A stretch of 21,450 nucleotides of DNA from Clostridia bacterium (GTDB lineage: Bacteria > Bacillota > Clostridia > Christensenellales > Aristaeellaceae), in contig JAKSQG010000013.1 in the NCBI GenBank assembly GCA_024404275.1, forward strand, positions 1 to 21,450, given 5' to 3'. Of this stretch, positions 1 through 19,076 are shown piece after piece (within the stretch, counting starts at the first letter, position 1; every line of letters starts with the position of its first letter). Position numbers and translations under genes: made by a program. The notes below the pieces were generated by a model. It saw nothing but the letters and a program-made list of their open reading frames with translations, ran no database searches and had not been told where the DNA came from.

Positions 1-2762
1 CCGCAGCGGTAATGCGGCGGCAGGGCATTCACCTCGGTAATGCCGCACAGGCGAGCCACCAGCGAGGAGCCTACGGATCCGCGGCTGCCCACCAGATAAC
101 CGTCGGAGTTGGATTTGCGCACCAGCTTACTGGCGATGTCGTACAGTGTGGCATAGCCGTAGCCGATGATGGAGTTCATTTCCTTCTCGATGCGCTTTTC
201 CACAATTTCGGGCAGCACATCGCCGTACAGTTCATGTGAGGTCTTTTCGACCATGCCGCGAATGTCGTCAGGGGCATAATCCCACACGGGAGAGAAGGTC
301 GTTTTCCCCTCGGGATGCTTGGGAAACAGCGATACCTCGCCGACCTTTTCCAGTATTTTTCTTGGGTTGTCGATGACCACTTCACGCGCTTTTTCCGGTC
401 CCAGATAGCTGAACTCGTCCAGCATCTCCCGCGTCGTTTTCAGATACAACGGCGGCTGCTGGTCGCAGTCCTCAAAGCCCATGCCATCCTGCAAAATCGC
501 ACGGAACACCGCGTCCTGCGGGTCCAGATAATGCACGTCGCCCGTTGCCACCACGGGAATACCCAGTTTTTCGCCCAGACGCACGATGACGCGATTCAGC
601 TCCCGCAGCTCCTCGTCATCCTTCACGCGCCCTTCGCGTACCAGGAAGGCGTTGTTGCCGATGGGCTGAATCTCCAGATAATCATAGAAGCGTGCAATGC
701 GGGAAAGCTTCTTCTCATCCGCTCCCTCCAGCACGGCGCGGAAAAGCTCGCCCGCCTCGCAGGCAGAACCGATAATCAGCCCCTCACGGTACTTCTGAAT
801 GTTTTCACGCGGCATGTGCGGACGGCGGCGGAAGTATTTCAGATGGCTGTCGCTGACCAGATGGTTGAGGTTCTGCAAGCCCTTCTGACTGGCTGCCAGC
901 ACAATGATATGAAAACTGGTGCCCAGCGTATAGCCGCTGATGATGTCGTCGATCTCGCCCAGCTCTTTGGCGCCGTGTGCAGCGGCGTCCTCCAGCATCT
1001 TCTGCAGGCACAGCGCCGTTGCCGTGGCGTCATGCACAGCACGATGGGCGTTCTTGAGCGATACGCCCAGGCGTTTGCACACTGCCGCCAGCTTGTGCGA
1101 TTTCAGGTCGGGATACAGCTTCCGTGCAAACGTCAGCGTATCAATGACGGTATATTCTTTTTCAATGCCCAGCCGCCGCAGTTCATTTCTCAGCACCGCG
1201 GTATCAAAGTCGGCATTGTGTGCCGCAAGCGGTGCGTCGCCGATAAATTCCAGCAGCTTCGGCATCTCTTCGGCAATGCCCGGTTCATCCTTCAGCATGG
1301 CATCTGTAATGCCCGTGATTTCTGTGATCTTGGGCTGCAGCAGCTGACCGGGATTGATCAGCACTGACATGGTGTCGGTCACCACGCCGCCCTCCAGCCG
1401 CACCGCGCCGATCTCAATGATGCGGCAGGAGCGGGTATCCAGACCTGTCGTTTCAAAGTCAAGCACCACAATCGGCGTATTCAGCGGACGCTTGTCGTCC
1501 TCCTCACTGCGCACGATCTGATCTGCATCGGTCAGATAGCCCTCGCAGCCGGGGATCAGCTTGATGCCGCGCTTCTTTGCCGCGCCAAACGCTTCGGGGA
1601 ACGCCTGCACCACACCGTGATCGGTGATGGCGACCGCGGGATGTCCCCAGTCGGCAGCACGGTTGATCAGCGCAGAGGCGGAAGCCACCGCGTCCATGTT
1701 GCTCATCTGCGTATGCATGTGCAGCTCAATGCGCTTCTCCGGTTCATCATCGGTGCGTTTGGGCAGATCATAGCGCACGATGCTGTTGACCATGATGGTA
1801 TTTTCCCGGGAAAAGGTATCGTAGCGGCAATCGCCCTTGACCGTCACGCCCTCGCAGTCCTTCAGGCGCTTGATCACATCCAGCACCACTGCACGCTGCT
1901 CATCGGTGATGGGCGGCAGCTCCTCCTCATTGTCCTTGGGACGCGGACGGTAGCGCAAAAACATTTTGCACTTGATGGTACCGGTATAATCGGTCACGTT
2001 AAAGGTGACCAGCAGGCACTCACCCCCGCTGATCTCCTTTTCCTCATAATCCAGACGGCGTCCCTGAATGACCGTTTCGCCCGTATCGCCTGTCAGCTCA
2101 CTGATGGGCACCGCCGGCTCGGCGATGGGGCGGCCGCGGATCAGGCGGCGCTTTTTCTCCTCCGCCGCTTCACGGCGTTTTCTTGCCGCCTCTTCCTGAC
2201 GGCGTGCCAGCTCCTGCCGCTGTTCTTTCAGTGCTTCTTCCGCCCGCCGCTCCCGTTCAATGCGAGCCAGTGTCTCCTCACGGGCACCTGTCACACGGCA
2301 GAACACTTCGGTCTTAAGGGTAAAGATATCGTTGATCACCTGCGCGATCTTTTCGGGCAGCTGATGGCTTTTCAGATAGTTCAGGGCAAAATCATCCGGC
2401 AGTTCCAGCACGATGCGGCCATCCTCGCGCTTATAGCGCATGTCAAATTCCCAGGCCGCCATGGAGGGATGATCACGCATCAATATATCGTTGATCACGT
2501 GCGCGTACTTGTCGGGGTCCGCCTCAAAATCTTCTTTCAGCGCCGGGCAGGAGATGCGCAGTGAAAAACGGATGTCGGGAAAGGTCCGTCGCAAAAGCGT
2601 TTTCAGCTCGCTGTATTCCCTGTCCCCCACCACCTCGCTGCTGAGCATATAAAAGAACGCATGCTTTTCAGACCGCTTGTAAATGACCCTGTCAATGGTC
2701 ACGCAGTCCTTCAGCGAGGGAATCTGCTCGCCGATTTTGGCAAGCAGCTCAGTATATGTCAT
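1..2762 (-). CDS. polC: DNA polymerase III, PolC type (Gram-positive replicative polymerase). N-terminal ~920 codons only; the 3' end runs off the window.
   Basis: Absent from the ORF track because the minus frame is open from ATG 2762..2760 to base 1 with no stop. My translation starts MTYTELLAKIGEQIPSLKD. It contains the PHP motif IELHMHTQMSNMDAV (~1690-1735) and exonuclease motifs VVLDFETTGL (~1445-1475), AHNADFD (~1205-1235) and HRAVHDA (~1025-1050). It reaches GSRGSVGSSLVARLCGITEVNALPPHY at the window edge. The start overlaps the ispG stop by 14 nt, the usual position downstream of rseP/ispG in Firmicutes. Confidence 0.9.
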   Translation of the reverse strand, partial: MTYTELLAKIGEQIPSLKDCVTIDRVIYKRSEKHAFFYMLSSEVVGDREYSELKTLLRRTFPDIRFSLRISCPALKEDFEADPDKYAHVINDILMRDHPSMAAWEFDMRYKREDGRIVLELPDDFALNYLKSHQLPEKIAQVINDIFTLKTEVFCRVTGAREETLARIERERRAEEALKEQRQELARRQEEAARKRREAAEEKKRRLIRGRPIAEPAVPISELTGDTGETVIQGRRLDYEEKEISGGECLLVTFNVTDYTGTIKCKMFLRYRPRPKDNEEELPPITDEQRAVVLDVIKRLKDCEGVTVKGDCRYDTFSRENTIMVNSIVRYDLPKRTDDEPEKRIELHMHTQMSNMDAVASASALINRAADWGHPAVAITDHGVVQAFPEAFGAAKKRGIKLIPGCEGYLTDADQIVRSEEDDKRPLNTPIVVLDFETTGLDTRSCRIIEIGAVRLEGGVVTDTMSVLINPGQLLQPKITEITGITDAMLKDEPGIAEEMPKLLEFIGDAPLAAHNADFDTAVLRNELRRLGIEKEYTVIDTLTFARKLYPDLKSHKLAAVCKRLGVSLKNAHRAVHDATATALCLQKMLEDAAAHGAKELGEIDDIISGYTLGTSFHIIVLAASQKGLQNLNHLVSDSHLKYFRRRPHMPRENIQKYREGLIIGSACEAGELFRAVLEGADEKKLSRIARFYDYLEIQPIGNNAFLVREGRVKDDEELRELNRVIVRLGEKLGIPVVATGDVHYLDPQDAVFRAILQDGMGFEDCDQQPPLYLKTTREMLDEFSYLGPEKAREVVIDNPRKILEKVGEVSLFPKHPEGKTTFSPVWDYAPDDIRGMVEKTSHELYGDVLPEIVEKRIEKEMNSIIGYGYATLYDIASKLVRKSNSDGYLVGSRGSVGSSLVARLCGITEVNALPPHYRC

Positions 2763-3798
2763 TCATGGCCTCCCGCACAATGCGGATAAACTCCGCCGCG
2801 ATATCACCGGTCAGCTTTTTGACAAACTGTCCGCGAATGTACAGCGCGCCGCAATTAACGCCGCCGCACAGGGCAAAGTCCGCGTCACGCGCCTCGCCGG
2901 GGCCGTTGACCACACAGCCCATCACGGCAATGGTCACATCCTTGGTGCAGCCGGCAAAGGCCTGTTCCACCTGCTGGGCAATGGCGTTCACATCAATGCG
3001 GGTACGTCCGCAGGTCGGGCAGGAAACAAATCTCGCGCCGCCCCGCAGGCCCACCGCCCTCAGGATATCAATGGCCGCCTGCGCTTCAGGCAGCGGAGAG
3101 CCGGTCAGCGATACACGCACCGTGTCGCCGATACCGTCCAACAGCAGCGCGCCGATGCCGATGGCCGACTTGATGCTGCCACGACCGGGCAGACCCGCCT
3201 CCGTCACACCCAGATGCAGCGGATAATCGCACTTCTGCGCCGCCATGCGGTAGGCAGCCACCGTCATGGGCACATCGCTGCACTTGAGAGAAAGCACAAT
3301 ATCGCCAAAGCCGGCTTTTTCCAGCATGGCGGCATGCCGCAGTGCGCTGTCCACCATGCCCTGCGCTGTGCGTCCGCCGTCGCGCTCCACAATGTCCTTT
3401 TCCAATGAACCCGCATTCACACCGATGCGGATGGGCACATGGTGCATCCTCGCTGCGTCCGCCACACGCCGCACATTTTCTTCCCCGCCGATGTTGCCGG
3501 GGTTGATGCGCAGCTTGGCAATGCCGTTTTCCACCGCGCCAATGGCCAACCGGTGATCAAAATGAATATCCGCCACCAGCGGCACAGGGCTGCCGTCCAC
3601 CAGGTCGCGTACCGCGCGCACACATTCCTCGTCATAGACCGAGACGCGCACCAGGTCGCAGCCTGCCGCTGCCAGCGCACGGATCTGCTCCAGCGTTTCG
3701 GCCACATTGCGGGTGTCGGTGTTGGTCATCGACTGCACCAGCACACGGCTGCCGCCGCCGATATCCAGATTGCCGATTTTCATTGCGCGTGTTTTCAT
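2749..3798 (-). CDS. ispG: 4-hydroxy-3-methylbut-2-en-1-yl diphosphate synthase (MEP pathway)
   Basis: The ORF-track product contains VQSMTNTDTRNV, the Fe-S ligand region FVSCPTCGRTRIDV and VMGCVVNGPGEA, all typical of IspG/GcpE. The track start at 3813 is TTG. ATG 3798 (MKTRAMKIGNL) lies 9 nt after a GAGG and is preferred; ATG 3804 or 3783 are also possible. Stop is TGA. Confidence 0.93.
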   Translation of the reverse strand: MKTRAMKIGNLDIGGGSRVLVQSMTNTDTRNVAETLEQIRALAAAGCDLVRVSVYDEECVRAVRDLVDGSPVPLVADIHFDHRLAIGAVENGIAKLRINPGNIGGEENVRRVADAARMHHVPIRIGVNAGSLEKDIVERDGGRTAQGMVDSALRHAAMLEKAGFGDIVLSLKCSDVPMTVAAYRMAAQKCDYPLHLGVTEAGLPGRGSIKSAIGIGALLLDGIGDTVRVSLTGSPLPEAQAAIDILRAVGLRGGARFVSCPTCGRTRIDVNAIAQQVEQAFAGCTKDVTIAVMGCVVNGPGEARDADFALCGGVNCGALYIRGQFVKKLTGDIAAEFIRIVREAMNDIY

Positions 3799-3809
3799 AT
3801 GCATCAACC

Positions 3810-4874
3810 TCAAAACAGATTCAGAATATCACGGAAAGTCAAAAACAGCATCAGCGCCATCAGAAGCAGCATGCCGATGGTGTGGATCCACGCCTCCACC
3901 TTGCGGTTGACCGGGCGGCGGAAGATCATTTCAAAAGCCACAAACCAGATGCGGCTGCCATCCAGACCGGGAACAGGCAGCAGGTTCATCAGTCCCAGAT
4001 TGATGGACAGCACGATCATCATTTCGATGTAGCCGATCAGGCTGTATTCCGCTGTCTGCTGGGCAATGACCGAGACGGCGCCCACCGGACCGGAGATCTG
4101 ATCCGCCCCCTCGCCGGTGGAAACCAGGTTTTTCAAAGTGGTCAACACCGCCCCCGCGGCATCTACACACACGTTCCAGCTGTGCCGCAGCGTCGCGCCA
4201 AAGTCCGCATGCATCCATTGGATCGGATAAGCATACTGAATCGTCACGCCCACCATGTACCGGTTCTCGGTGCTGATATAATCGGGTGTCACCTGCAGCT
4301 CCAGTACCTTGCCGCCGCGCTTTACCTCCAACGGCACAGCCCCCTTTTCGGCGCTGTAGCCGGGAAACAGGCTTTCGGTATCCTTGATCTCCGTACCGCC
4401 CGTTTTCAGGATGACATCCCCGGGCTTGAGTCCGCCCTTTTCCGCCGGAGAATCAGCCGTGACCGAAATGACTTGCGCCTCCAGCCCTTCTCCCGCGTAG
4501 GGCAGTCCCTGTACGCCAAAGAAGCACAGCGCCGCTACAAAAGCCAGCACAAAATTCATGATCGGGCCCGCAGCAATGGTGACCAGCCGCTTCCATGCCG
4601 CCTGCCGCGTCAGCGCCCGCGGATCGCCATCCGCCTTGCCGTTCACATCATCCTCGCCGTAAAAGGCACAAAAGCCGCCGCAGGGAATGGCACGGAGCGT
4701 ATACACGGTACCGTTTTTGCCTGTACGGCCCCAGATTTTCGGTCCGAAGCCGATACTGAACGCCTTTACGGCAATACCGCAGGCGCGGGCGGCAAAAAAG
4801 TGTCCCGCTTCATGAATGCTGATCATAATGCCAAGCAGCAGCAGCGCTGCCAGCACATACAAAATACCGGACAT
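3810..4874 (-). CDS. rseP: RIP (site-2) zinc metalloprotease, M50 family, RseP/RasP-like
   Basis: HEAGHFFAARACG (HExxH inside TM1), a central PDZ-like segment (GLKPGDVILKTGGTEI) and the C-terminal NLLPVPGLDGSRI motif. GGAGG precedes ATG 4874. It follows dxr after a 13-nt gap. Confidence 0.9.
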   Translation of the reverse strand: MSGILYVLAALLLLGIMISIHEAGHFFAARACGIAVKAFSIGFGPKIWGRTGKNGTVYTLRAIPCGGFCAFYGEDDVNGKADGDPRALTRQAAWKRLVTIAAGPIMNFVLAFVAALCFFGVQGLPYAGEGLEAQVISVTADSPAEKGGLKPGDVILKTGGTEIKDTESLFPGYSAEKGAVPLEVKRGGKVLELQVTPDYISTENRYMVGVTIQYAYPIQWMHADFGATLRHSWNVCVDAAGAVLTTLKNLVSTGEGADQISGPVGAVSVIAQQTAEYSLIGYIEMMIVLSINLGLMNLLPVPGLDGSRIWFVAFEMIFRRPVNRKVEAWIHTIGMLLLMALMLFLTFRDILNLF

Positions 4875-4887
4875 GCTTCCTCCGTTA

Positions 4888-6048
4888 TCAGGTCATGGAA
4901 TTCAATATCTGCCGTGCCATCCGCCTTGCCGTTTCATCGGCCAGGTAGACCGCCTCCAGGCTGTCAGCCGGCATATTGCCCACGCGGGAGAGTGTCTCAT
5001 TCACCACCGCGCCGATGTCGGTAAAGCGGATGCCGCCGGCACGGAAAGCCGCGTTGGCCTCCTCATTGGCGGCGTTGAGCATACAGCAGGCGGCGCCGCC
5101 GGCACGAATGGCCGCATACGCCAACCCCACTGCCGGAAAACGCTCGGGGTCCACTTCATAAAAGGTACAGGCGCCGATGGCAGCAAAATCCGCCCTCGGG
5201 GCAGCCGTTTCAATCCGTTCGGGATACGCCATCGCGTAAGCGATGGGAACACGCATATCAGGCGCGCCCAGCTGCGCCATCACAGCACCGTCCTTGAATT
5301 CCACCATGGAATGCACAATGCTCTGGGGATGGATCAGTACATGGATCTGCTCCGGCTTCGCGTTGAACAGCCAGCGCGCTTCAATAACTTCCAGCGCCTT
5401 GTTGAACATGGAAGCGGAATCCACCGTGATCTTCGCGCCCATGCTCCAGTTCGGATGGCACAGCGCCTGCTCCAGCGTCACATTCTGCAGCTCTTCCGTG
5501 GTCATTTCCCGGAAGGGACCACCCGAAGCCGTCAGATGGATGGTGCGGTAGGCATTGCCCTGTGCGGCTTTGAGGCACTGATAAATAGCGCTGTGCTCGC
5601 TGTCCACGGGGATCAGCGTAGGTCCATCCGCCCCGTCGGCACAGCAGCTCATCACCAGCTGACCGCCCGCTACCAGTGCCTCCTTGTTAGCCAGCAACAC
5701 GCGCCGTCCCGCGGAACGGGCAGCCATCACCGCCGGCAGACCGGTCATCCCCACCACGCTCACCAGCACATCATCTGCCGGCACTTCACGGGCAGCGGCG
5801 ACCAGAGCAGCGCTTCCAAAGCGCCAGTCGATCGTTTTCAGATCATCGGGAATGGTGACGGCATTTTCGTTCACGCCGGTCAATCCCGCCATCAGCGGCT
5901 GAAAGCGCCGCACCTGTTCAAAAAGCGCATCCGCGTTGCGGTGCGCCGTTAATGCCGTAATTCTGAAGCGTTCCGGGTGCATCGCCGCAATTTTCAACGC
6001 CTGCGTACCGATAGAGCCCGTACTGCCCAGGATGGAGATATTTCTCAT
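4888..6048 (-). CDS. dxr: 1-deoxy-D-xylulose 5-phosphate reductoisomerase
   Basis: ISILGSTGSIGTQAL (NADPH-binding), LANKEALV, PVDSEHSAI and HPQSIVHSMVEF are all canonical Dxr blocks. 386 aa, TGA stop. Confidence 0.95.
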   Translation of the reverse strand: MRNISILGSTGSIGTQALKIAAMHPERFRITALTAHRNADALFEQVRRFQPLMAGLTGVNENAVTIPDDLKTIDWRFGSAALVAAAREVPADDVLVSVVGMTGLPAVMAARSAGRRVLLANKEALVAGGQLVMSCCADGADGPTLIPVDSEHSAIYQCLKAAQGNAYRTIHLTASGGPFREMTTEELQNVTLEQALCHPNWSMGAKITVDSASMFNKALEVIEARWLFNAKPEQIHVLIHPQSIVHSMVEFKDGAVMAQLGAPDMRVPIAYAMAYPERIETAAPRADFAAIGACTFYEVDPERFPAVGLAYAAIRAGGAACCMLNAANEEANAAFRAGGIRFTDIGAVVNETLSRVGNMPADSLEAVYLADETARRMARQILNSMT

Positions 6049-6061
6049 ACGGAGACCTTTC

Positions 6062-6877
6062 TTATTTCAGAAGAATCTGCTGATAGATATACACCAGAGC
6101 CGACACAAACAAAATGCTGTCCATGCGGTCCATCACACCGCCGTGACCGGGAATCAGATTGGAATAATCCTTGATGCCGCAGTGACGCTTGATCAGCGAA
6201 GCATACAGGTCGCCCACCTGTCCCACAACGCCGCCCAGCAATCCGACAATGGCAAAATGCCACACAGGCGGCATCAGTACCTTATCTCCCATGGTCGCGC
6301 AGGCAATGCCCCAGATAGCCAGCGCACACAGCACCGAGCCCATCAGGCCTGCCGCCGCGCCCTCCACTGTTTTGTTGGGGCTCACCTTGGGGATCAGTTT
6401 GCGGCTGCCAAAGCGCACACCGATAAAGTAAGCAGCGGTATCGCCGGCTACGGGCACCAGCAGACTCAGACAGATGAGCGGCACACGCCACAATTCGTTG
6501 ACGGCGTGGTTCTGGCTGAGCAGACACATGCCGGGCAGCGTCACGCTGAGCAGCGGCATCACCGACACCAGAATATCCTCCAGATGCGGTTCGCCATGGA
6601 AGAGCACATACATCGTAATGATCAGAATGGTACCAAACAGGATCGGCAGCAGCGCCTCTCCCTTGTACACCAGAAACGCCGGGACCGCCAGCACCGTCGC
6701 CGCCCATACAGGCCAGCGCACCACCTGATGCCCCTTTTTGATCAGTGCCTGCGTCATCTCATGCAGCGCCAGAGCAATGGCGGCAATGCAGATCACGTCA
6801 AACACCCAGCCGCCCAGCAAAATGGCGGCCATCGTCAGGGGAATCAGCACGCATCCCGTAATGATCCTTGTTTTCAT
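6062..6877 (-). CDS. cdsA: phosphatidate cytidylyltransferase (CDP-diglyceride synthase)
   Basis: Polytopic membrane protein with the CDS signature SLIKRHCGIKDYSNLIPGHGGVMDRMDS near the C-terminus. AAGGAG precedes ATG 6877. It starts 3 nt after the uppS stop. Confidence 0.9.
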   Translation of the reverse strand: MKTRIITGCVLIPLTMAAILLGGWVFDVICIAAIALALHEMTQALIKKGHQVVRWPVWAATVLAVPAFLVYKGEALLPILFGTILIITMYVLFHGEPHLEDILVSVMPLLSVTLPGMCLLSQNHAVNELWRVPLICLSLLVPVAGDTAAYFIGVRFGSRKLIPKVSPNKTVEGAAAGLMGSVLCALAIWGIACATMGDKVLMPPVWHFAIVGLLGGVVGQVGDLYASLIKRHCGIKDYSNLIPGHGGVMDRMDSILFVSALVYIYQQILLK

Positions 6878-6880
6878 GTG

Positions 6881-7594
6881 TCACTCCTTGCGGGCACCAA
6901 ACCGCCTGTCACGGCGGCCGAAGGCGTCCAGCGCTTCATGATAATCCTTGAGCGAAAAATCAGGCCACAGCACCGTGGGAAACAGCATTTCGGCATAGGC
7001 ACATTGCCACAGCATAAAATTGCTCAGGCGCATCTCACCGCTCGTGCGGATCACCAGATCGATATCCGGCAGTCCGGCCGTATAGAGCCTGTCGGCAATT
7101 GCCTTTTCGTCAATGTCCTCCGGACGGATGCGTCCCGCCGCGGCATCCTCCGCAAGCAGTCGTGCCGCCCGGGTCAGTTCTGCCCTCGCGCCGTAGTTGA
7201 TGGCAATGCACAGCTTCAGACCGGTGTTCTGCTTTGTTCTTTCTTCCGCCGCAAACAGCGCTTCTTTCTGCGGGGAGGGCATGCCCTCCTTATCACCCAG
7301 AATATGGATGCAAACGTTTTTTTCATCCAGTTCATCGATCTCGGAAGTAAAATACTCCAGCAGCAGGCTCATCAGTGCCCCCACCTCTGCCGCGCTGCGG
7401 CGCCAGTTCTCGGTGGAAAAGGCATACAGCGACAGCGCTTCAATGCCAATGTCACTGCTCTAACGGATAATGGCGCGCAGCGTCTCCACGCCCTTGCGGT
7501 GACCCATCGCCACCTGCAGGGCATGCGCCTTGGCCCAACGGCCGTTGCCGTCCATGATAATGGCTACATGCCGCGGCAATACAGCTTCACTCAT
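6881..7594 (-). pseudogene. uppS: Isoprenyl transferase / undecaprenyl-diphosphate synthase reading frame, interrupted by one in-frame TAG at 7460-7462 (codon 45)
   Basis: The track lists only 6881..7384 (GTG start). Reading the same frame upstream gives ATG 7594, with GGAGG 7 nt upstream, and [69 protein letters not shown].... Both halves are canonical UppS, with the DGNGRW catalytic region upstream and the YAFSTENW and RTSGE.RLSNF.LWQ blocks downstream. I checked frame continuity codon by codon. Confidence 0.85.
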
Positions 7595-7787
7595 TGTCTT
7601 TCCTCCGCGGGTCTCCGTCCCTGAAATGCGCCGCGACCAGCACGCCGGGACGAAGGCCGATGACCCGCATCGTGGTCTCGCCTCTGTCCTCCATACCGGT
7701 CATACGCACCTCGGGCTCCTGCCCGGCCTTCTTACAAACAAGCAGGGCCTGCGCAAGCGGCAGGCCCAGGCAGGCAGAAGGCGGCAT
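7587..7787 (-). CDS. Small hypothetical protein (66 aa), translationally coupled to uppS
   Basis: ATG 7787 is preceded by GAGGTG at 6-nt spacing; the track's TTG 7814 is an alternative start. Third codon positions are mostly G/C, as in the flanking genes. Its TGA (7587-7589) overlaps the uppS ATG by 8 nt (ATGAGTGA). I recognise no family. Confidence 0.45.
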
Positions 7788-7810
7788 GGGCCGCACCTCT
7801 TCTTTTATCG

Positions 7811-8374
7811 TCAAACCGCCATGATCTCCTTTTCCTTTTCGGCGGAGAGCTTGTCGATCTCCTTGATGGCGTTGTCGGTGACCTTCTGCAGGTCATCCTC
7901 GGCCTTGTGCTGTTCATCCTCGGTCAGCTCATTGTCCTTCTTCATCTTCTTGATGACTTCCATGGCGTCACGGCGGATGTTGCGGCACGCCACCTTGCTT
8001 TCCTCGGCGGTCTTGCGCACCACCTTGGTCAGCTCCTTGCGGCGCTCCTCATTCAGCTCGGGCACAATCAGGCGAACGACATGACCGTCGTTGGAGGGGT
8101 TCAGGCCCAGATCGCTCTTCTGGATGGCCTTTTCGATGGCGGGGATGGCCTTCTGATCCCAGGGGGCGATCACCAGCATACGGGGTTCGGGAGCGGAAAT
8201 GTTGCCGACCTGATTGATGGGCATCATGCTGCCGTAATATTCCACGGAGACGCGGTCCAGGATCTGCGGATTGGCGCGGCCGGCACGCAGGGACTGCATA
8301 TCACGCTTGAAAGCATCCTGAGTTTTGACCATACGGGATTTGGAGTTTTCGATCAGTTCTTTTGCGGTGGGCAT
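7811..8374 (-). CDS. frr: ribosome recycling factor
   Basis: MPTAKELIENSKSRMVKTQDAFKRDMQSLRAGRANPQILDRVSVEYYG... is a full-length canonical Frr of 187 aa. The true start is ATG 8374 with GAAGGAGG upstream; the track ORF extends further to a spurious upstream start. Confidence 0.95.
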   Translation of the reverse strand: MPTAKELIENSKSRMVKTQDAFKRDMQSLRAGRANPQILDRVSVEYYGSMMPINQVGNISAPEPRMLVIAPWDQKAIPAIEKAIQKSDLGLNPSNDGHVVRLIVPELNEERRKELTKVVRKTAEESKVACRNIRRDAMEVIKKMKKDNELTEDEQHKAEDDLQKVTDNAIKEIDKLSAEKEKEIMAV

Positions 8375-8601: not shown

Positions 8602-9768
8602 TTGTACCGTCTGCTTACCGCCGCCGTGCTTCGCCGCGCAGGTTCGGATGAACGCCGTCAGCGCACGCTGATGAACACCGCTGCCTCCGTGGCAGGCATC
8701 GCAGTCAATCTGCTGCTGTTCGCGCTCAAGCTCGCCGCCTCCCTGCTGTCCGGAAGTCTGGCTGCCGCTGCCGATGCCATCAACAACCTTTCCGATGCCG
8801 CAAGCAGCGTGATGGCCCTTTTCTCCGTTCGTCTTGCCGAAAAGCACGCGACGGAAAAGAATCCTTTTGGATTCGGCCGTGCCGAGTATCTCGGTGCGTT
8901 GGGCGTGGGGCTTCTCATCGTGCTGATGGCACTGGAGCTGTTCCTTTCCGCCCTTCGCAGCCTGTTTTCTCCGGAGTCCGCCGTTTTTTCTCTTTCCGGC
9001 TTTCTGCTTCTGTTTTCCGGTATTCCATTCAAGCTCTGGCTCAGTCTTTTCTATCGCCGGGTGCATCGTCATACCAACAGCCCTGTGCTGAAAGCCGCGG
9101 AAGCAGACAGCCGCAGCGACTGCCTGGTCACCGGCGGGGTGCTGCTTTCGATGCTTGTAGGGCACCTTACAGGCTTTAACCCGGACGGCTGGATCAGTCT
9201 GCTCGTGGCTGCTTTCGTTTTCATGAGCGGCTTTACCGTGATCCGTGATACCGTCACACGTCTGCTGGGCGGCACCCCCGACCGGGAACTGGCTGAAAAG
9301 CTGCTGAAAAAAGTACGCAGCTACCCCTATATTCTCGATGTGCACGATTATGTCCTGCACGATTACGGTCCCGGCCGCTGCATGGCCTCCATTCACGCCG
9401 AGGTACCTGCCGACGGTGATCTGCTGCGCATGCACGATGTCATCGACCGCATGGAGCATGAGATCGAAGCCGAGTTTCACGTTCCCATCTGCGTGCACAT
9501 GGACCCCGTGACCGTCACCCCCGGCCCCGCCCGCGATACCGAGGCTGCACTCCACGCTTTCCTGCTCTCACTCGATCCGCCGCTACATCTGCACGATTTC
9601 CATTATGCTCTGCAGGACGGCATTCCCTCGATCAGTTTCGATGTGGATGTTCCCCCTTCCTTCCTCGATATGGATACAGTTGCCCCCGTCATCCGCAAGA
9701 AAGCCGATGAGCTGCTGCCCGGCTGCCTGTGCGACATTCATTTTGATAAGGAATACTACCATGTTTAA
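8602..9768 (+). CDS. Cation diffusion facilitator (CDF) family divalent-metal efflux transporter
   Basis: TM2 motif AADAINNLSDAASS, NPFGFGRAEYL, TM5 motif AEADSRSDCLVT, and a C-terminal cytoplasmic domain (DVHDYVLHDYGPGRCMASIHAEV). TTG 8602 is preceded by GAAGGGAGAG; ATG 8671 is an alternative start. Confidence 0.85.
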   Translation: MYRLLTAAVLRRAGSDERRQRTLMNTAASVAGIAVNLLLFALKLAASLLSGSLAAAADAINNLSDAASSVMALFSVRLAEKHATEKNPFGFGRAEYLGALGVGLLIVLMALELFLSALRSLFSPESAVFSLSGFLLLFSGIPFKLWLSLFYRRVHRHTNSPVLKAAEADSRSDCLVTGGVLLSMLVGHLTGFNPDGWISLLVAAFVFMSGFTVIRDTVTRLLGGTPDRELAEKLLKKVRSYPYILDVHDYVLHDYGPGRCMASIHAEVPADGDLLRMHDVIDRMEHEIEAEFHVPICVHMDPVTVTPGPARDTEAALHAFLLSLDPPLHLHDFHYALQDGIPSISFDVDVPPSFLDMDTVAPVIRKKADELLPGCLCDIHFDKEYYHV

Positions 9769-12031: not shown

Positions 12032-12078
12032 AAAACGGCATGCCTCTGATGATGAGACATGCCGTCTTATTATTTATT
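12032..12078. terminator. Bidirectional intrinsic terminator between convergent genes
   Basis: A long imperfect stem pairs 12032-12046 (aaaacggcatgcctc) with 12054-12068 (gagacatgccgtctt). Its core is ACGGCATG/CATGCCGT. It is flanked by an A-rich 5' side and a T-rich 3' side (attatttatt), so it can act for both the plus gene ending at 12019 and the minus gene ending at 12085. Confidence 0.7.
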
Positions 12079-12084
12079 GACCGC

Positions 12085-12441
12085 TTATTCTGCAATACCC
12101 AGTTCGATATCCTGCATGGATGTCATTTCCACCGTACCGTCCATGCCTTCCCAGATGTACACCAGGCACAGGTGGGACATTGCATCCGGCACCACGGGCG
12201 TTACCTTGGCCAGGAAGCAGTAATTGGTGCCGTTCACCACCTGCAGACCCAGCAGGGCAAGGGGCTCCACCAGGCTGCCGGTCCAGTTTTCAAAGGCCTT
12301 TTCAAACAGCGCCAGGGTATCGGCGTCCAGTTCCGTGGTCTCTGCCACAGACCAACCGCCTGCCATCATGCCTTCCGCCATCGCGCCGCAGCAGCTTCCG
12401 AGCAGAACCAGAGTCACAATCAATGCCAGCAGCTTTTTCAT
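12085..12441 (-). CDS. Small secreted, probably lipid-anchored, stefin/cystatin-like protein
   Basis: Signal peptide with a lipobox-like LLGSC, or an AMA-E SPase I site. The mature part carries GGWSVAE near its N-terminus and LQVVNGTNYCFLAKV, which matches the cystatin QxVxG loop and the stefin QVVAGTNY(F/Y)IKV block as I remember them. GGAGGAAAAAAC precedes ATG 12441. It lies 24 nt downstream of the flippase-like gene. The CDS call is solid; the function is inferred. Confidence 0.75.
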   Translation of the reverse strand: MKKLLALIVTLVLLGSCCGAMAEGMMAGGWSVAETTELDADTLALFEKAFENWTGSLVEPLALLGLQVVNGTNYCFLAKVTPVVPDAMSHLCLVYIWEGMDGTVEMTSMQDIELGIAE

Positions 12442-12465
12442 GTTTTTTCCTCCGTCATTATGGTT

Positions 12466-13539
12466 TTATACAGTCGGCGGTTCTCCGTTCGCGTCGTATA
12501 CGGGAATCCCGTCAAGCTTATCCTTTTTGCCGGTCAGGGACATGATCAGGAAATTGACCGCCCCCAACAGAATATAAACATAGAAGACAAAGAATCGCCA
12601 TGTCATCATAGCCCAGAAGGTGTTGCCGCTGCTCAGCTGCGAGAACACCAGATAAAAGCTGCCCTCTGCCACGCCGGCGTTGCCCGGGGTCGGGATGAAG
12701 GTGATGCCCGCCTGAATGGCAGTGATCGTAGCCAGACAATTCAGATACGGCAGGCTGCCGCCAAAGGCTTTCAGCACAAAATAGGGAATGGAGCACACCG
12801 CCAGCTGAAAAATCAGGCTCAATGCCATCAGCACCACGCACAGCAGCGGGTTGGTCAGCATTTTTTTCAGGCACTTGCTGTAGTTATCCAGCATGGTCCG
12901 CAGTTTGTCGATTTTTTCTTCAGGTTTTTTGATAATCCTGATATGCGACAGCAGACGGATGCCGCCGTTGAGGATACGCTGCGTCAGTTTGGGGCACACC
13001 GCGGTGAGAATAATCATCGTCGGAATGAAAGCGTAGCACGCCAATCCCAGATAAGCGGCGATGCGTACCGCCTCAGCCTGCGCGGCATGGGTGAACAGCA
13101 TCGTCAGCCCCAGCAGAATAAAGCTGATCTGTCCGCTCATAAAACCCGATAATGTAATTGCGGCGCTCTCCGGCCCCGGCAAGCCGCCCTTGGTCAGATA
13201 ATAGATCTGAAACGGCTGTCCGCCGATGGCCGCCGGCGTAATGTTGTCATAATACTTGCCGATCAGCACCGTGCGCAGCGCCAGCACCGGATGAAATTTT
13301 CCGCAAGCCTTTTTGATCAGGATGCAGTGCCGCAGCACATCCGAAAACATGGCCAGCAAAAAGCAGCCGAAGGCGGGAATGAGCAGCGCCCAGCGGATCT
13401 CGACCTATTGCAGCCCGGGAGCGTCCCGTGTTCCCGAAAATTCCGTATAAGCCGTCCAGGCAATGATGCCCACATTCAGCAGGATCAATGCCGCGGTGGA
13501 TAACAATTTTTTTGTTTTTTTGCTCAGGGGTCTTTTCAC
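12466..13539 (-). pseudogene. UPF0104 / lysyl-PG-synthase-TM-like ('flippase-like') polytopic membrane protein frame, interrupted by one in-frame TAG at 13405-13407
   Basis: The track lists 12466..13359 (TTG start) with family-typical blocks (YYDNITPAAIGGQPFQIYYL, IPTPGNAGVAEGSFYLVF). The same frame continues upstream as (GTG 13539)KRPLSKKTKKLLSTAALILLNVGIIAWTAYTEFSGTRDAPGLQ-TAG-VEIRWALLIPAFGCFLLAMFSD.... This supplies the basic N-terminus and TM1 expected for the family. GGAGAA lies 6 nt before GTG 13539; in-frame ATG 13569 is an alternative start. Confidence 0.75.
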
Positions 13540-13582
13540 CAAAGCTTCTCCGATACACACTATTGGCATTCAGCCTTCTGTT

Positions 13583-13611: not shown

Positions 13612-13668
13612 GAAAAAAATGCTGTTTTCCCCCTTTTTACGCTTTATCCGCTTTTGTTCATAAATCTG

Positions 13669-13697
13669 TTGGCTTGTTTTCCATTCCGTGATATAAT
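13669..13697 (+). promoter_or_regulatory. Extended -10 promoter for the MBL / Fe-S gene pair
   Basis: TTGGCT (13669-13674), a 17-nt spacer, then TGaTATAAT (13689-13697). AGAGGTG RBS precedes ATG 13720. Confidence 0.6.
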
Positions 13698-13719
13698 GGG
13701 TATCACAGAGGTGACAAAC

Positions 13720-14541
13720 ATGAAACTTCATTATTACGGCACAGGCGATGGCTATGGCATCCCGGAGCCTCTTTGTTCCTGTCGTCTTTGCAGCTATGCC
13801 CGTGCACACAGAGGAAAGGATATCCGCACCCGCTCCCAAGCCGTGTTGGAAGACCTGATGCTTGACTGCTCCGCCGACATGGCGCTGCACACGCTGTTTT
13901 ACGGGCTCGATATGCGCTGCTACCGCCATATCCTGATCACGCATCCGCATTCCGATCATTATGACCTATCGCAGTTCCGTGCCCGCTATACCGATACAGA
14001 GGGCTGGAATCTATATATACCCGAAAGTCTGTATCAATCCGAGCAGGCATCCCTCCTTCTGCAGCAACAGAATGAAAAAAAGAACCCGCCCCGTCGCGTC
14101 CCCATCCTGCATCCGGTAAAGCCCTTTGAACCTTTTGAGATCGGCAAAAACCGCATCACACCGCTCCCCTCCAACCACATGAAGGACGCGCTGCTGTACC
14201 TCATCACCCGCGAAAACAAAAGCGTTTTGTGGATTCACGATTCGGGGCTCCTTCTTCCCGAAACACAGCAATATCTTGCCGCGCACGCGCCGCATCTGGA
14301 CCTCGTATCGATGGATTGCACCCTCGCCCGCGGCTCAAACTTCACGCCTTCGCACATGGATATCCTTCAATGCGCTGAAACCGCCGCTTGGCTGCGTTCT
14401 GCAGGTCTGGCAGATGACCGCACCGTTTTTGTACTCAGCCACATCGGTCACCTCATTGACCGCACGCATAAAGAATTGTGCGCCGAGGCTGCCGAACTTG
14501 GTTTCATCGTCGCATACGACAACATGGAGATCGACTTTTAA
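13720..14541 (+). CDS. MBL-fold metallo-hydrolase, PhnP-like (cyclic phosphodiesterase-like)
   Basis: MKLHYYGTGDGYGIPEPLCSCRLCSYARAHRGKDIRTRS carries a CxCxxC structural-zinc motif as in PhnP. The beta-lactamase-fold motif ITHPHSDH is also present. 273 aa. True start is ATG 13720. Confidence 0.82.
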   Translation: MKLHYYGTGDGYGIPEPLCSCRLCSYARAHRGKDIRTRSQAVLEDLMLDCSADMALHTLFYGLDMRCYRHILITHPHSDHYDLSQFRARYTDTEGWNLYIPESLYQSEQASLLLQQQNEKKNPPRRVPILHPVKPFEPFEIGKNRITPLPSNHMKDALLYLITRENKSVLWIHDSGLLLPETQQYLAAHAPHLDLVSMDCTLARGSNFTPSHMDILQCAETAAWLRSAGLADDRTVFVLSHIGHLIDRTHKELCAEAAELGFIVAYDNMEIDF

Positions 14542-14558: not shown

Positions 14559-15404
14559 ATGCTCACCCGTGAAATGATTCTGGAGGAATTGTCCCGTTTC
14601 TGCAAGGAAGACGCCGGCAACTACGTATCTCCCGACCGGGCAATTACTCCTTCCGATGCGGGACAACGCATGTATGACGCTCCCATCATTGCCATCGGCA
14701 GCGTTGATGATCCCTGGTGGCAGCACCTCAAGGAACCGCAGGCCATCGGCCCCCATTTCAAGGGACCCACCGAATGGCTTCCCACTGCCCGCACAGTGGT
14801 ATCGTATTTTGCCCCCTTCACCGAGTTTGTGCGCCGCGGTAACGAAGCTGACCCTCTCGAGGTCGGTCACGGCTGGCTGTATGCCCGCGTGGATGGTCAG
14901 GCCTTTTTGCACCGTCTCAACCACCATATGGAGGATTTTTTCCGTCAGCACGGTGTGGAGGCCATCAGTCCCTACGCCAGTGCTGATTTCCAACATGTCT
15001 TTGCCGCCGGTACCAATCCCGCGCTCGACCCTGCCCTTTCCTTCACCAGCAACTGGAGTGAGCGTCACGTGGCCTATGTCTGCGGTCTGGGTACTTTCGG
15101 TCTGTCGAAAGGTCTCATCACCAAAAAGGGCGTTGCGGGACGCTTTGGCAGCTTTGTTGTAAGTGCCGACCTGCCCACCGATGAACGTCCCTACACCGGC
15201 CTGTACGATTACTGCAGCATGTGCGGCCGCTGCGCCAAAAACTGTCCCGCTCACGCCATTACCCTCGAGGAAGGCAAAAAGCATCCTCCCTGCAGCGCTT
15301 ATGTCAAATCAATGGGCGTCAAATACAGTCCCTTCTTCGGCTGCGGCAAATGTCAGGTCAACACCCCCTGTGAGCGCGGCATCGCCAATCCCAAGTTTCG
15401 CTGA
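14559..15404 (+). CDS. QueG / reductive-dehalogenase-superfamily protein with two [4Fe-4S] motifs (epoxyqueuosine reductase-like)
   Basis: C-terminal CSMCGRCAKNCPAHAI and FGCGKCQVNTPCERG cluster motifs follow a ~200-aa QueG/RdhA-like core. GAGAAGGTG precedes ATG 14559. It starts 17 nt after the MBL gene. The specific substrate is unknown. Confidence 0.75.
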   Translation: MLTREMILEELSRFCKEDAGNYVSPDRAITPSDAGQRMYDAPIIAIGSVDDPWWQHLKEPQAIGPHFKGPTEWLPTARTVVSYFAPFTEFVRRGNEADPLEVGHGWLYARVDGQAFLHRLNHHMEDFFRQHGVEAISPYASADFQHVFAAGTNPALDPALSFTSNWSERHVAYVCGLGTFGLSKGLITKKGVAGRFGSFVVSADLPTDERPYTGLYDYCSMCGRCAKNCPAHAITLEEGKKHPPCSAYVKSMGVKYSPFFGCGKCQVNTPCERGIANPKFR

Positions 15405-15502: not shown

Positions 15503-15520
15503 CGCGTTATGCTTCGAGGA

Positions 15521-16996
15521 TTACTCGTTGGCCAGACCCAGAGCAACCAGCTGCTCGGTAGCCAGATTCATGTACTCGCCGAAGTCGTAGCTGTCATACA
15601 GCTCCTGAATGAACTGGTCATATTCGGCCAGGTCACGCTCGCCCTTGTAGAAGGCGATCAGCTGAGTATTGATGTAGCTTTCCATATCGGCCAGGTTGAA
15701 GTCATCGGGCACGATAACGGAGGTGTTGAAGTACTCCAGGATGTTGTAGTGCAGACCCCAGGCAACTTCCTTGGAAGCCTCGGGGAACTTGGCGGCCAGA
15801 TAGGTCATCTCGTCGCGGCCCAGCCACTGATACTCATGCACGTAGTTGGTTTCGGCAGCGTTTTCGGGAACCAGCTTGATCATGCCGTTCTCGTCGTAGT
15901 TCCAGTGACGGCCTTCCAGACCCATGTACACCAGCATCTTGCCTTCTTCGGTGCACATATAGTCCAGAACCTTCAGCAGAGCTTCGAACTTCTCATCGCT
16001 GATGTCGGCGCTCACAGCCAGCTTGTCGCCAACGTTGACGTCATGCTTAACGATGGTGAAGCGCGGGCCCTCGCCGGCGTCCAGAGCTTCGATCACGTCA
16101 TAGGTGGCTTCTGGGCAAACGGCCTTCCACTGGTCGATGTAGCTCTGCTTGTGAACGTTGGACCACTTAACAGCGGACACACCGACGTTGCAGCTGAACA
16201 CGGTCGCCTTGGCGCTGCTGTTGCTCATCAGGCCGGGATCCAGCAGGTTGGAGTCATAGAACTTCTTCAGCATGGTCAGAGCTTCGACCATACGGGGCTG
16301 CAGCACGCTGTTGGTGACCTTGCCGTCACGGATCAGCAGGTAGTTGCCCAGACCGACATCATAGGGAGCGGTGATGCAGGCCAGACCGGGCAGACCATAG
16401 CTGGTCAGACCGATGGTGTCGATCACGCCGTTGCCGTCGTAGTCGTGGGAAACGATGTCCATGCAGTAGTCGTAGAGTTCATCCACAGTGGTGGGAACCT
16501 TCAGACCGTACTTTTCGTTCCAGTCGCCGCGGACATAGATTTCGAACTGCTGTTCGCCCAGAGGCTGAGCAGCGGGGAAGCAGTACATGCCGCCATCATA
16601 GTAGTTGGAAGGAATGTCGATGTTGTCGCCATAGGCTTCCAGCAGATGATTCCAGAATTCGGTGCCCTTGATCTCGGAAATGTCCTTCAGATAACCGGAA
16701 GCAGCGAAGTTCTGCACCTGATCCGGTCCGAGCCACATGACATCCGGGATTTCGCCGCCGACGATGCGGGCGCCCAGAGCGGTGTCATAGTCCTGCAGGT
16801 CATCCAGGATCACTTCGACGCCGATCTTATCGCGGATGGTGGTGTAAACATAGTCGTCTTCACGATCGGTGGGGATACCGCCGGCATGCTTGTCGGTCAC
16901 GCCGTAGATGACGATGTTTTCAGCCTGGGCGGTCATCATGCCGGTCAGGGAGAAGAGCATGGCCATCATCAGAACGAGGGAGATAATGCGCTTCAT
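15521..16996 (-). CDS. ABC transporter extracellular solute-binding protein (large carbohydrate-type, LplA-like)
   Basis: ATG 16996 with AAAGGAGGA upstream. Signal peptide MKRIISLVLMMAMLFSLTGMMTAQA. 491 aa with family-1 SBP character. It is the last gene of the permease operon. Confidence 0.88.
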   Translation of the reverse strand: MKRIISLVLMMAMLFSLTGMMTAQAENIVIYGVTDKHAGGIPTDREDDYVYTTIRDKIGVEVILDDLQDYDTALGARIVGGEIPDVMWLGPDQVQNFAASGYLKDISEIKGTEFWNHLLEAYGDNIDIPSNYYDGGMYCFPAAQPLGEQQFEIYVRGDWNEKYGLKVPTTVDELYDYCMDIVSHDYDGNGVIDTIGLTSYGLPGLACITAPYDVGLGNYLLIRDGKVTNSVLQPRMVEALTMLKKFYDSNLLDPGLMSNSSAKATVFSCNVGVSAVKWSNVHKQSYIDQWKAVCPEATYDVIEALDAGEGPRFTIVKHDVNVGDKLAVSADISDEKFEALLKVLDYMCTEEGKMLVYMGLEGRHWNYDENGMIKLVPENAAETNYVHEYQWLGRDEMTYLAAKFPEASKEVAWGLHYNILEYFNTSVIVPDDFNLADMESYINTQLIAFYKGERDLAEYDQFIQELYDSYDFGEYMNLATEQLVALGLANE

Positions 16997-17053
16997 ACTT
17001 GGGGTCCTCCTTTTAAATTTATATGCAGACCATTGCGGTCTGAATACCATGTG

Positions 17054-17911
17054 TCAGCCCTTCACGGCGCCCGCCAGGGTACCCTTGACGAAGTACTTCT
17101 GAATGAAGGGATAAATAACAACGATGGGAACGGTGGCAAACACAACGGCTGCCATCTTGAGGGTCTCGGGCGGCACCACGTCATCGGCAGTGATGTCGGT
17201 GGTGTTGGCACGCAGCTTGGCACGCAGAACGACCTGCAGCGGATACTTGGCAGTGTTGGTGATGTACAGTACCGCATTGGTGTAGGTGTTCCAATGGTCC
17301 ACGGCGTAGTACATGCCGATGGTCATCAGGATGGGCAGCGACATGGGCATCACGATACGAAGCAGCACGCCAAACTCCGTCGCGCCATCGATGCGGGCCG
17401 ATTCAAACAGTTCCTCCGGCAATCCCTCAAAGAAGGCCTTCATGATGATCAGGTTATACACGCTGACCATGGTGGGCACAAACAGGGACCACATGGAGTT
17501 GAGCAAACCGGTCTCCTTGACCACCAGATAGGTGGGAATGGTACCGGCGGAGAAGACCATCGTGAAAACGATCAGCTTCATGACCCACTTCTGTCCGGGC
17601 ATCCTGCGGCGGGAAAGCGGATAAGCGGTCAGCAGGGTGACCAGCAGGTTGCTGCCGGTACCCACCAGAGTGACCCACACGGTCAGCAGCATCGAATGGG
17701 CCAGCTTGCCGTCCTGCAGCATCTCACGGTAGGCCGTCAATGTGAAGGAGCGGGGAATCAGCACGAAGCCGCCGTTTTTGATGACCTCGGCATAGGGCGT
17801 AAAGGACATGGAAACAACAAACAGAACGGGAACAAGGGTGACCAGCAGCACAATGCCCATGATCACATAAACGACGATATTGAACGCCAGATCGCTTCTG
17901 CTTTTTACCAT
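17054..17911 (-). CDS. Carbohydrate ABC transporter permease (LplC/YtcP-like)
   Basis: Six-TM protein with the EAA-loop FESARIDGATEFGVLLRIVMP. ATG 17911 (MVKSRSDLAFNIV) overlaps the upstream permease stop by 7 nt. Confidence 0.9.
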   Translation of the reverse strand: MVKSRSDLAFNIVVYVIMGIVLLVTLVPVLFVVSMSFTPYAEVIKNGGFVLIPRSFTLTAYREMLQDGKLAHSMLLTVWVTLVGTGSNLLVTLLTAYPLSRRRMPGQKWVMKLIVFTMVFSAGTIPTYLVVKETGLLNSMWSLFVPTMVSVYNLIIMKAFFEGLPEELFESARIDGATEFGVLLRIVMPMSLPILMTIGMYYAVDHWNTYTNAVLYITNTAKYPLQVVLRAKLRANTTDITADDVVPPETLKMAAVVFATVPIVVIYPFIQKYFVKGTLAGAVKG

Positions 17912-18968: not shown

Positions 18969-19035
18969 GCTATATGTCACCAAAAAAACAAAAAAACTTA
19001 CATGCCGTATCCCGCTTTCGAAGCATTCGCCGCAC

Positions 19036-19069
19036 GCAAAAAGGAAGGACGTTTCCGTCCTTCCTTTGC
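19036..19069 (-). terminator. Intrinsic terminator downstream of panF
   Basis: AAGGAAGGACG (19041-19051), loop TTTC, then CGTCCTTCCTT (19056-19066). On the minus strand the hairpin is followed by a TTTTT run. It lies 8-10 nt after the panF TGA. Confidence 0.7.
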
Positions 19070-19076
19070 AATCATA

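Follow-up and report, generated by a model that had tools for sequence, protein, structure and literature searches.

In-frame TAG codons in housekeeping genes of an uncultured Clostridia lineage are probably translated as glutamate

Introduction

What does a TAG codon mean when it stands in the frame of an essential housekeeping gene that otherwise looks intact? The question is raised by a stretch of 21,450 nucleotides from an uncultured Clostridia bacterium (hereafter the window, meaning the whole stretch that we analysed), in which TAG occupies codon 45 of uppS. In the broad screens and recent papers that we consulted, the bacterial reassignments described concern UGA only, and TAG is otherwise a stop codon (PMC8629427; 10.1101/2024.09.30.615893; 10.64898/2026.05.24.727570; PMC13462651); according to a Codetta screen of >250,000 genomes, every change known in bacteria is one of UGA (PMC8629427). 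Here we follow the uppS TAG through related strains and contigs, compare it with further in-frame TAG codons of the same lineage, and weigh the ways in which such codons can be understood.

Results

A single TAG interrupts an otherwise complete uppS frame

The uppS gene lies on the minus strand of the window within an operon of core genes (Table 1), and its translation around codon 45 reads ...RAIIR, then TAG, then SSDIGIEALSLYAFSTENW... When the TAG is read through, the product matches its families over their whole length, with 314.7 bits against NCBIfam NF011405 (cut-off 304), 276 bits over positions 1-228 of 228 in TIGR00055 and 267 bits over positions 1-219 of 219 in Pfam PF01255. The motifs DGNGRW (near the N-terminus), AFSTENW and RTSGE..LSNF are present in the translation and are kept in the TAG-bearing alleles. 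The original prediction, made from the window alone, had described a TAG at codon 45 of an otherwise complete 237-codon UppS, which the sequence and the full-length family matches bear out. Its account of the surroundings also agrees with our direct reading: GGAGG stands 7 nt 5' of the uppS ATG, the upstream ORF, whose TGA is at 7589-7587, overlaps uppS by 8 nt, and cdsA begins (ATG at 6877) after a spacing of 3 nt. With glutamate inserted, the predicted UppS peptide spanning the TAG site would be ESSDIGIEALSLYAFSTENWR.

Table 1. Reading frames and in-frame TAG codons of the lineage. Positions are those of the window; sites read on related contigs have no position.
Feature	Position	Strand	Observation
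Operon frr-orf66-uppS-cdsA-dxr-rseP-ispG	2749..8374	-	polC runs on to the left end of the window; all ends TGA or TAA
uppS reading frame	6881..7594	-	237 codons including TAG; ATG 7594 to TGA 6883-6881
uppS codon 45	7460..7462	-	In-frame TAG (minus-strand T, A, G at 7462, 7461, 7460); TAG in window, L001, L093-L098; GAA in L082, L083
polC codon 591	990..992	-	GAG in window, L082, L083; TAG in L099
Cation-efflux (CDF) gene codon 125	8974..8976	+	GAG in window; TAG in L083
Flippase-like (LPG_synthase_TM) gene	12466..13569	-	367 codons including TAG; ATG 13569; stop TAA
Flippase-like gene codon 55	13405..13407	-	In-frame TAG; Pfam match on readthrough, conservation in 10 strains
4Fe-4S (Fer4) gene codon 9	14583..14585	+	GAG in window; TAG in L083, L085, L087
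ylxQ codon 69			TAG in L099/L100; variable column
truB codon 194			TAG in L107; GAG in L100
truB codon 208			TAG in L099/L100; GAA in L107; Glu in the window's own MAG
mutS2 codon 131			TAG in L100; Glu in 34/34 relatives
mutS2 codon 721			TAG in L100; column D29/E3/G2
Histidine kinase codon 415			TAG in L100; variable column

The uppS TAG recurs across samples in alleles under purifying selection

Look-ups by exact protein, by cluster and by contig placed the uppS TAG-45 allele in eight independent samples, the window included (MAG GCA_024500545.1, which holds the window, SRR17543910, SRR18398395, ERZ27247101, -123, -127, -149 and -179). The Logan contig from run SRR17543910 (L001), which we found through an exact CdsA protein match, shows 6 differences from the window over 2,638 bases and likewise has TAG-45, and the allele as a whole stands on two different flanking haplotypes. 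Two further strains, L082 and L083, have GAA (Glu) at codon 45, at a nucleotide identity to the window of 96.1% and 95.4%, respectively.

All of these data are metagenomic assemblies of uncultured Clostridia, with no isolate among them, and the window itself comes from a MAG, which might suggest an artefact of sequencing, assembly or base modification. The same TAGs were, however, obtained by different assemblers and projects (NCBI MAG, ENA MEGAHIT-style k141 and Logan contigs) from many runs; moreover, the TAG haplotypes differ at dozens of other positions and the sites are codon- and frame-specific, and we give an artefact practically no chance. The sequencing or assembly error that the original prediction had allowed for can thus be set aside for uppS, because eight independent samples and assemblies carry the same TAG.

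Variation among the eight TAG carriers is concentrated at silent positions, with 57 synonymous against 12 non-synonymous variable codons, all 12 of the latter being conservative. This constraint is visible both 5' and 3' of TAG-45, and no frameshifts, indels or further stops were found in uppS among the eight carriers. Judged by these substitutions, the variation of the TAG alleles is the pattern of a translated gene with a functional, full-length product. The proposal that this copy might be a decaying paralogue finds no support, because purifying selection is strong on both sides of the TAG.

The identity of the ancestral codon emerged from the alignment of orthologues. P0001 UppS (97% identical) and all relatives down to 75% identity read IIRESSD, i.e., they have Glu in the codon-45 column. 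In a set of 75 more remote UppS sequences this column is not conserved and holds A, Y, T, E, C and other residues. The original prediction had given an aromatic residue at this position and had derived the TAG from TAY. In this clade the alignment instead gave Glu, encoded by GAA in the sister strains, so that the TAY to TAG scenario is unsupported, and the ancestral codon, as the close relatives together with L082 and L083 show, is one for Glu (GAA or GAG).

A second TAG in the window has shortened an annotated protein

A flippase-like gene in the same window contains the second in-frame TAG, at codon 55. In the NCBI annotation this gene appears as a truncated protein of 294 aa (MCQ2453278.1), whose Pfam match begins at profile position 53; when the TAG is read through, the match begins at position 9. 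The frame is open in the 5' direction through the single TAG, and the 54 upstream residues align to the N-terminal helix of the family. The TAG is kept in 10/10 strain sequences (10 samples) spanning ~5% nucleotide divergence, and comparisons with other strains give ratios of synonymous to non-synonymous changes of 34:4, 17:1, 14:1 and 15:1. Among homologues, the codon-55 column consists of D16/E8/N3/K1. On other contigs, automatic gene calling splits uppS, polC, truB and mutS2.

In-frame TAG codons are spread over core chromosomal genes

Curated comparisons of orthologues, by which we judged in-frame stops because a tblastn screen of relatives was too noisy owing to antisense contamination, brought the number of in-frame TAG sites in the lineage to at least 11 across 10 housekeeping and other genes, two sites in the window and nine on related contigs (Table 1). 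As used here, the lineage comprises the window's MAG, its strain variants in ~20 samples and the sister MAG GCA_045599485.1, which corresponds to a species-to-genus level; L099 and L100 are overlapping stretches of one 44-kb contig from this sister MAG and are 92.4% identical to L082. At every one of the 11 sites, homology or Pfam domains run on 3' of the TAG. The TAG-bearing genes lie among core chromosomal genes (polC, infB, nusA, dxr, ispG, frr, truB, mutS2) and not among phage genes.

The polC frame runs without interruption in the window and in strains L082 and L083, and contains a single TAG in L099. In truB the two sites are reciprocal, L100 combining GAG-194 with TAG-208 and L107 combining TAG-194 with GAA-208. 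Readthrough restores canonical lengths of 300 aa for TruB (with its C-terminal domains), 102 aa for YlxQ and 788 aa for MutS2 (with its Smr domain); for MutS2, a predicted peptide spanning a TAG site with glutamate inserted would be MLEDAINGAIISEEEMSDHASPALADIR. Codon 9 of the 4Fe-4S gene is counted from a start at ATG 14559, which we assigned from the ribosome-binding site (GAGAAGG) and its spacing. We also considered 157-aa fragments of a HAD hydrolase (L101-L106) as further cases and rejected them, as they belong to a more distant lineage and show a frameshift-like split with no TAG.

TAG alternates with glutamate codons

In order to identify the residue, we paired TAG with the codon of the direct orthologue wherever such a comparison could be made, and in 6/6 cases the partner was a Glu codon (uppS-45 GAA, CDF-125 GAG, polC-591 GAG, truB-194 GAG, truB-208 GAA and Fer4-9 GAG). 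Of three further sites, mutS2-131 lies on a column of invariant Glu and mutS2-721 and flippase-55 lie on acidic columns; histidine kinase-415 and ylxQ-69 lie in columns that are variable in PDB alignments and are uninformative on the residue. Under the codon usage of the lineage, 21% of random single-base routes to TAG start from GAG (17% with transition bias), and because this share is so small the 6/6 pairing with Glu has p ~1e-4 against random single-base routes. No TAG/CAG, TAG/AAG, TAG/TAY or TAG/GAY pair occurred among the six direct comparisons. Such a pattern is just what synonymy of TAG with GAG would produce. Glutamate is thus most likely the inserted residue and TAG appears to behave in this lineage as a synonym of GAG, an identification that rests on evolutionary substitution patterns.

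A different residue, be it pyrrolysine (as in archaeal Code 34), glutamine (as in phage code 15 or with supE-type suppressors) or aspartate, has some precedent and some local support. Pyrrolysine belongs to the only natural UAG-decoding system known in bacteria, recoded phages usually read UAG as glutamine, and aspartate is the majority residue at two of the TAG columns. Against these readings, the direct partner is GAG or GAA in all six cases and never CAG, AAG or GAY, the MutS2-131 column is Glu in all 34 relatives, and UppS-45 is Glu in all relatives of 75%-97% identity. If UAG meant glutamine, the most frequent kind of mutation should interchange it with CAG, and no such pair was seen. If it meant pyrrolysine, a bulky lysine-derived residue would replace a conserved Glu in at least six proteins, which would not be neutral, and the TAG sites do prefer one standard amino acid, as is evident from the Glu codons and the acidic columns. 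We therefore consider a residue other than glutamate improbable.

TAG is absent from the sampled gene ends

If TAG is a sense codon, it should be sought at gene ends as well as inside genes. In the window and L100, which together hold 42 genes and 13,358 codons, there are seven internal in-frame TAG codons, zero TAA and zero TGA, and the 41 complete gene ends are TAA in 22 cases, TGA in 19 and TAG in none; the additional genes of L082 likewise have TGA or TAA, and never TAG, at their ends. The sample amounts to ~45 kb of unique sequence and ~42 genes, so the absence of TAG ends holds at the level of this sample rather than of the whole genome, and TAG stops may occur elsewhere in the lineage's genome. 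Zero TAG ends in 42 genes has p ~0.01-0.03 if TAG naturally makes up 8-10% of stops in this clade. Two window ORFs, 15509-18010 and 19002-19967 (both on the plus strand), which would count as TAG-ended genes, were rejected as they have no family hits and run antisense to ABC-transporter and panF genes.

Relatives with the standard code end 10/43 of the same orthologues with TAG. Avoidance of TAG by the whole family, which we had considered, is refuted by genuine TAG stops in L002, L003, L005, L006, L007 and L013; in L002, an ABC permease stops at TAG with the start of the ATPase directly after it, and in L005 uppS itself terminates at TAG. Since the nearest other species terminate at TAG, the change is restricted to a narrow lineage and of recent date. 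Within the lineage, TAG accounts for ~0.8% of Glu codons. The original prediction had framed the uppS TAG as a single lesion in one essential gene with possible polar effects on its operon, a framing that does not hold with at least 11 TAG sites and no sampled TAG gene ends; because there are many such sites and no such ends, the phenomenon is one of the genetic code or the translation machinery and not of uppS. Amber suppression or readthrough, which was also among the options originally listed, belongs to the family of explanations that the evidence favours.

The distribution of stops bears directly on whether these are genuine nonsense mutations that leave pseudogenes or split genes, for example in a G-to-T mutator lineage, with paralogues or restart fragments compensating. 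The change from GAG to TAG is a G-to-T transversion, and such transversions are the hallmark of 8-oxoG damage; both NCBI and automatic gene callers treat the genes as truncated or split. A mutator, however, would convert GAA to TAA by an equivalent substitution. GAA and GAG are equally common, yet internal TAA and TGA are absent and TAG was found seven times. Purifying selection acts on both flanks of the TAG in uppS as well as in the flippase gene, there are no frameshifts, and polC and uppS, both essential and single-copy, are among the genes hit. A restart in uppS would fare badly, as the first canonical in-frame restart codon 3' of the TAG is GTG 7384, from which, as originally predicted, DGNGRW would be lost, and AFSTENW with it. 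Genuine nonsense mutation is accordingly very hard to sustain.

A further reading is ambiguous decoding, in which an efficient amber-suppressor tRNA, chromosomal or from a prophage, would read UAG while RF1 is kept and TAG still ends some genes elsewhere. In its favour, TAG is a stop in the nearest other species, which makes any change recent, and serves very seldom as a sense codon; strains of the species differ at the uppS site (TAG against GAA); and pyrrolysine archaea show that such ambiguity can last (PMC12626013). On the other side, none of the 42 genes ends in TAG while the same genes hold the seven internal TAGs, and TAG stands in the essential, high-demand genes polC and uppS and persists in the flippase gene of all ten strains, which indicates efficient decoding and not leakage. 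We judge ambiguous decoding of this kind to be unlikely.

No recoding signal accompanies the TAG codons

We looked for signs of recoding in the RNA around the codons. The RNA that follows the uppS TAG is no more stably folded than its shuffled counterparts (z = +0.53), and Rfam gave no match. Apart from a G that is often present at +4 and arises because Asp or Glu codons come next, the ten TAG contexts have no motif in common. Recoding directed by a cis element, whether SECIS- or PYLIS-like or a programmed read-through, is not what is found at these sites. We also searched for the machinery of decoding. The long contigs scanned contain no tRNA genes of any kind, hence no CUA-anticodon tRNA there, and no pylT or pylSBCD genes were found on the contigs sampled.

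Taken together, the sequence comparisons make it likely that UAG is translated as a sense codon in this lineage and that glutamate is inserted. Decoding appears to be efficient enough for purifying selection to act on polC, uppS, truB and mutS2. Codon 45 of uppS would then be a normal, if rare, codon for Glu, derived from GAG by an effectively synonymous change, and UppS would be made in full length.

For the mechanism we lean, with less assurance, towards a natural, chromosome-wide reassignment of UAG to glutamate at an early stage in a free-living, GC-rich lineage of gut Clostridia, with a CUA tRNA derived from tRNA-Glu and with RF1 lost. A dedicated tRNA with a CUA anticodon would decode UAG, plausibly a tRNA-Glu(CUC) with one change at anticodon position 36, and would be charged by the non-discriminating GluRS that is typical of Clostridia. 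Clostridia generally have a non-discriminating GluRS, which already tolerates either of two bases at anticodon position 36. In E. coli, the anticodon including C36 is an identity element for GluRS, so that charging of a CUA tRNA with glutamate would not be trivial. RF1 would be lost or weakened, leaving RF2 alone to read the remaining UAA and UGA stops. The rarity of TAG (~0.8% of Glu codons) and the TAG stops of the nearest species suggest that such a reassignment would be recent, whether it came about by codon capture or through an ambiguous intermediate.

Discussion

The pattern described here has its closest bacterial parallels in code 4, in which UGA is Trp (Mycoplasmatales, Hodgkinia and some Eggerthellaceae), and code 25, in which UGA is Gly (Gracilibacteria/Absconditabacteria) (PMC8629427; PMC13462651). 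As we propose for the lineage studied here, a chromosomal stop codon has become a sense codon in these codes, occurs in housekeeping frames, no longer ends genes and is limited to a single clade. They differ in that codes 4 and 25 concern UGA and RF2, whereas here the codon is UAG and the factor and residue would be RF1 and Glu. The lineage also has a GC content of ~57% and an ordinary-looking gene content on its contigs, unlike a reduced, AT-rich genome.

Among prokaryotes, genome-wide use of UAG as a sense codon is known from archaeal Code 34, in which all TAG is read as pyrrolysine (Kivenson et al., 10.1101/2024.09.30.615893). Code 34 shares with our lineage the apparently split genes with homology past the TAG, a coding density that is little changed, and a sporadic and recent taxonomic distribution. 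Here, in contrast, the host is a bacterium, and a standard amino acid is indicated rather than pyrrolysine, since TAG alternates with Glu codons and falls in columns of acidic residues. In phage code 15, TAG is read as Gln in crAss-like and Lak phages with the aid of phage-encoded suppressor tRNAs; the likeness lies in amber as a sense codon in a gut ecosystem through a tRNA(CUA) (PMC9523058), which in our case is a putative one, and the difference in that TAG here stands in housekeeping genes of the chromosome instead of late genes of phages, with GAG or GAA and not CAG as the partner codon.

The meaning that we propose for UAG, glutamate, is found in eukaryotes. UAR codons encode Glu in peritrich ciliates (table 30) and in Blastocrithidia nonstop, where tRNA-Glu species with cognate anticodons decode them (PMC12153298). 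These are nuclear codes in which UAA has been reassigned too, whereas TAA is the commonest stop here (22/41 ends). A further comparison is provided by the RF1-deleted or recoded strains of E. coli (C321.deltaA and 'Ochre'), in which UAG has been freed and assigned by means of a tRNA(CUA) while RF2 handles the other stops (PMC11903333). Those strains are engineered, and our lineage would be a natural counterpart.

To place the finding, a UAG reassignment in bacteria is mentioned in neither the 2026 gTranslate preprint nor the 2026 Eggerthellaceae paper; our search of the literature was incomplete and an earlier report is possible. With this reservation, the case described here would be the first report of TAG being reassigned on a bacterial chromosome and the first assignment of UAG to a standard amino acid in any bacterium, and, if true, it would call for a new bacterial translation table. 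Annotation with table 11 truncates or splits genes of this lineage (e.g., MCQ2453278.1) and thereby distorts inferences on completeness, pseudogenes and essential genes. A tRNA(CUA)/GluRS pair that looks naturally orthogonal would, if the reading is true, also offer synthetic biology the concept of an RF1-free chassis.

For the biology of the lineage, a confirmed reassignment would mean that RF1-dependent termination can be given up in a genome that is GC-rich and not reduced. It would also mean that a change of the code is in progress, with TAG and GAG still polymorphic between strains and with sister species that use the standard code. Because of this polymorphism and the standard code of the sister species, codon-capture and ambiguous-intermediate models would become directly testable.

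Variation within and around uppS

Comparison of uppS among strains places His (CAT) at codon 97 (window 7306-7304) in the window's strain only, the residue being Arg in all other strains and relatives (CIRILGD). The His is a private non-synonymous change in a gene that is otherwise constrained. The TAG-bearing uppS allele of ERZ27247127 (L097, 47-229) carries a called N-terminus, MSRINLPGVKPQPKRREDFARLPQHV..., 5' of the conserved core. This N-terminus is both longer and different, which points to recombination in the ERZ27247127 strain or to divergence of its upstream region. Between frr and uppS, a 66-codon ORF is called and conserved in all strain contigs (contigs of the same lineage from other samples) and its position is retained in the 92%-identical sister lineage. 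The ORF has no Pfam match; it overlaps the start of uppS by 8 nt.

Features of the window and of L100, a stretch of a 44-kb contig from the sister MAG GCA_045599485.1
Feature	Sequence	Coordinates	Strand	Remark
66-codon ORF	window	7587-7787	minus	between frr and uppS
MBL-fold gene	window	13654-14541	plus	Lactamase_B_2 match
Antisense shadow ORF, 562 aa	window	5936-7624	plus	opposite real gene
Antisense shadow ORF, 370 aa	window	12040-13152	plus	opposite real gene
Antisense shadow ORF, 833 aa	window	15509-18010	plus	opposite real gene
219-aa gene	L100	9293-9952	minus	faint Phage_Mu_F match

Gene calls and a putative mobile element

Very long antisense shadow ORFs are typical of the GC-rich sequence of the window, and can skew ORF-based counts, including those of apparent TAG-terminated genes. 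In at least six contigs of a more distant related lineage (L101-L106), gene calling divides a HAD-IIA hydrolase gene (L102 4821-5632) into overlapping parts of 126 aa and 157 aa that lie in different frames. The split involves no TAG; it could stem from a frameshift, either fixed or programmed, or from an N-terminus that differs. In precomputed annotations of the strain contigs, the MBL-fold gene additionally matches PF23023 (Anti-Pycsar Apyc1), a family of anti-defence enzymes degrading cyclic nucleotides; such a match is unusual amid chromosomal housekeeping genes.

In the sister MAG, the 219-aa gene and a 61-aa neighbour are located between the HAD hydrolase and PPIase genes of L100, and the pair may represent a small mobile or phage remnant. 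Such an element is a possible carrier of a putative suppressor tRNA, encoded elsewhere on it.
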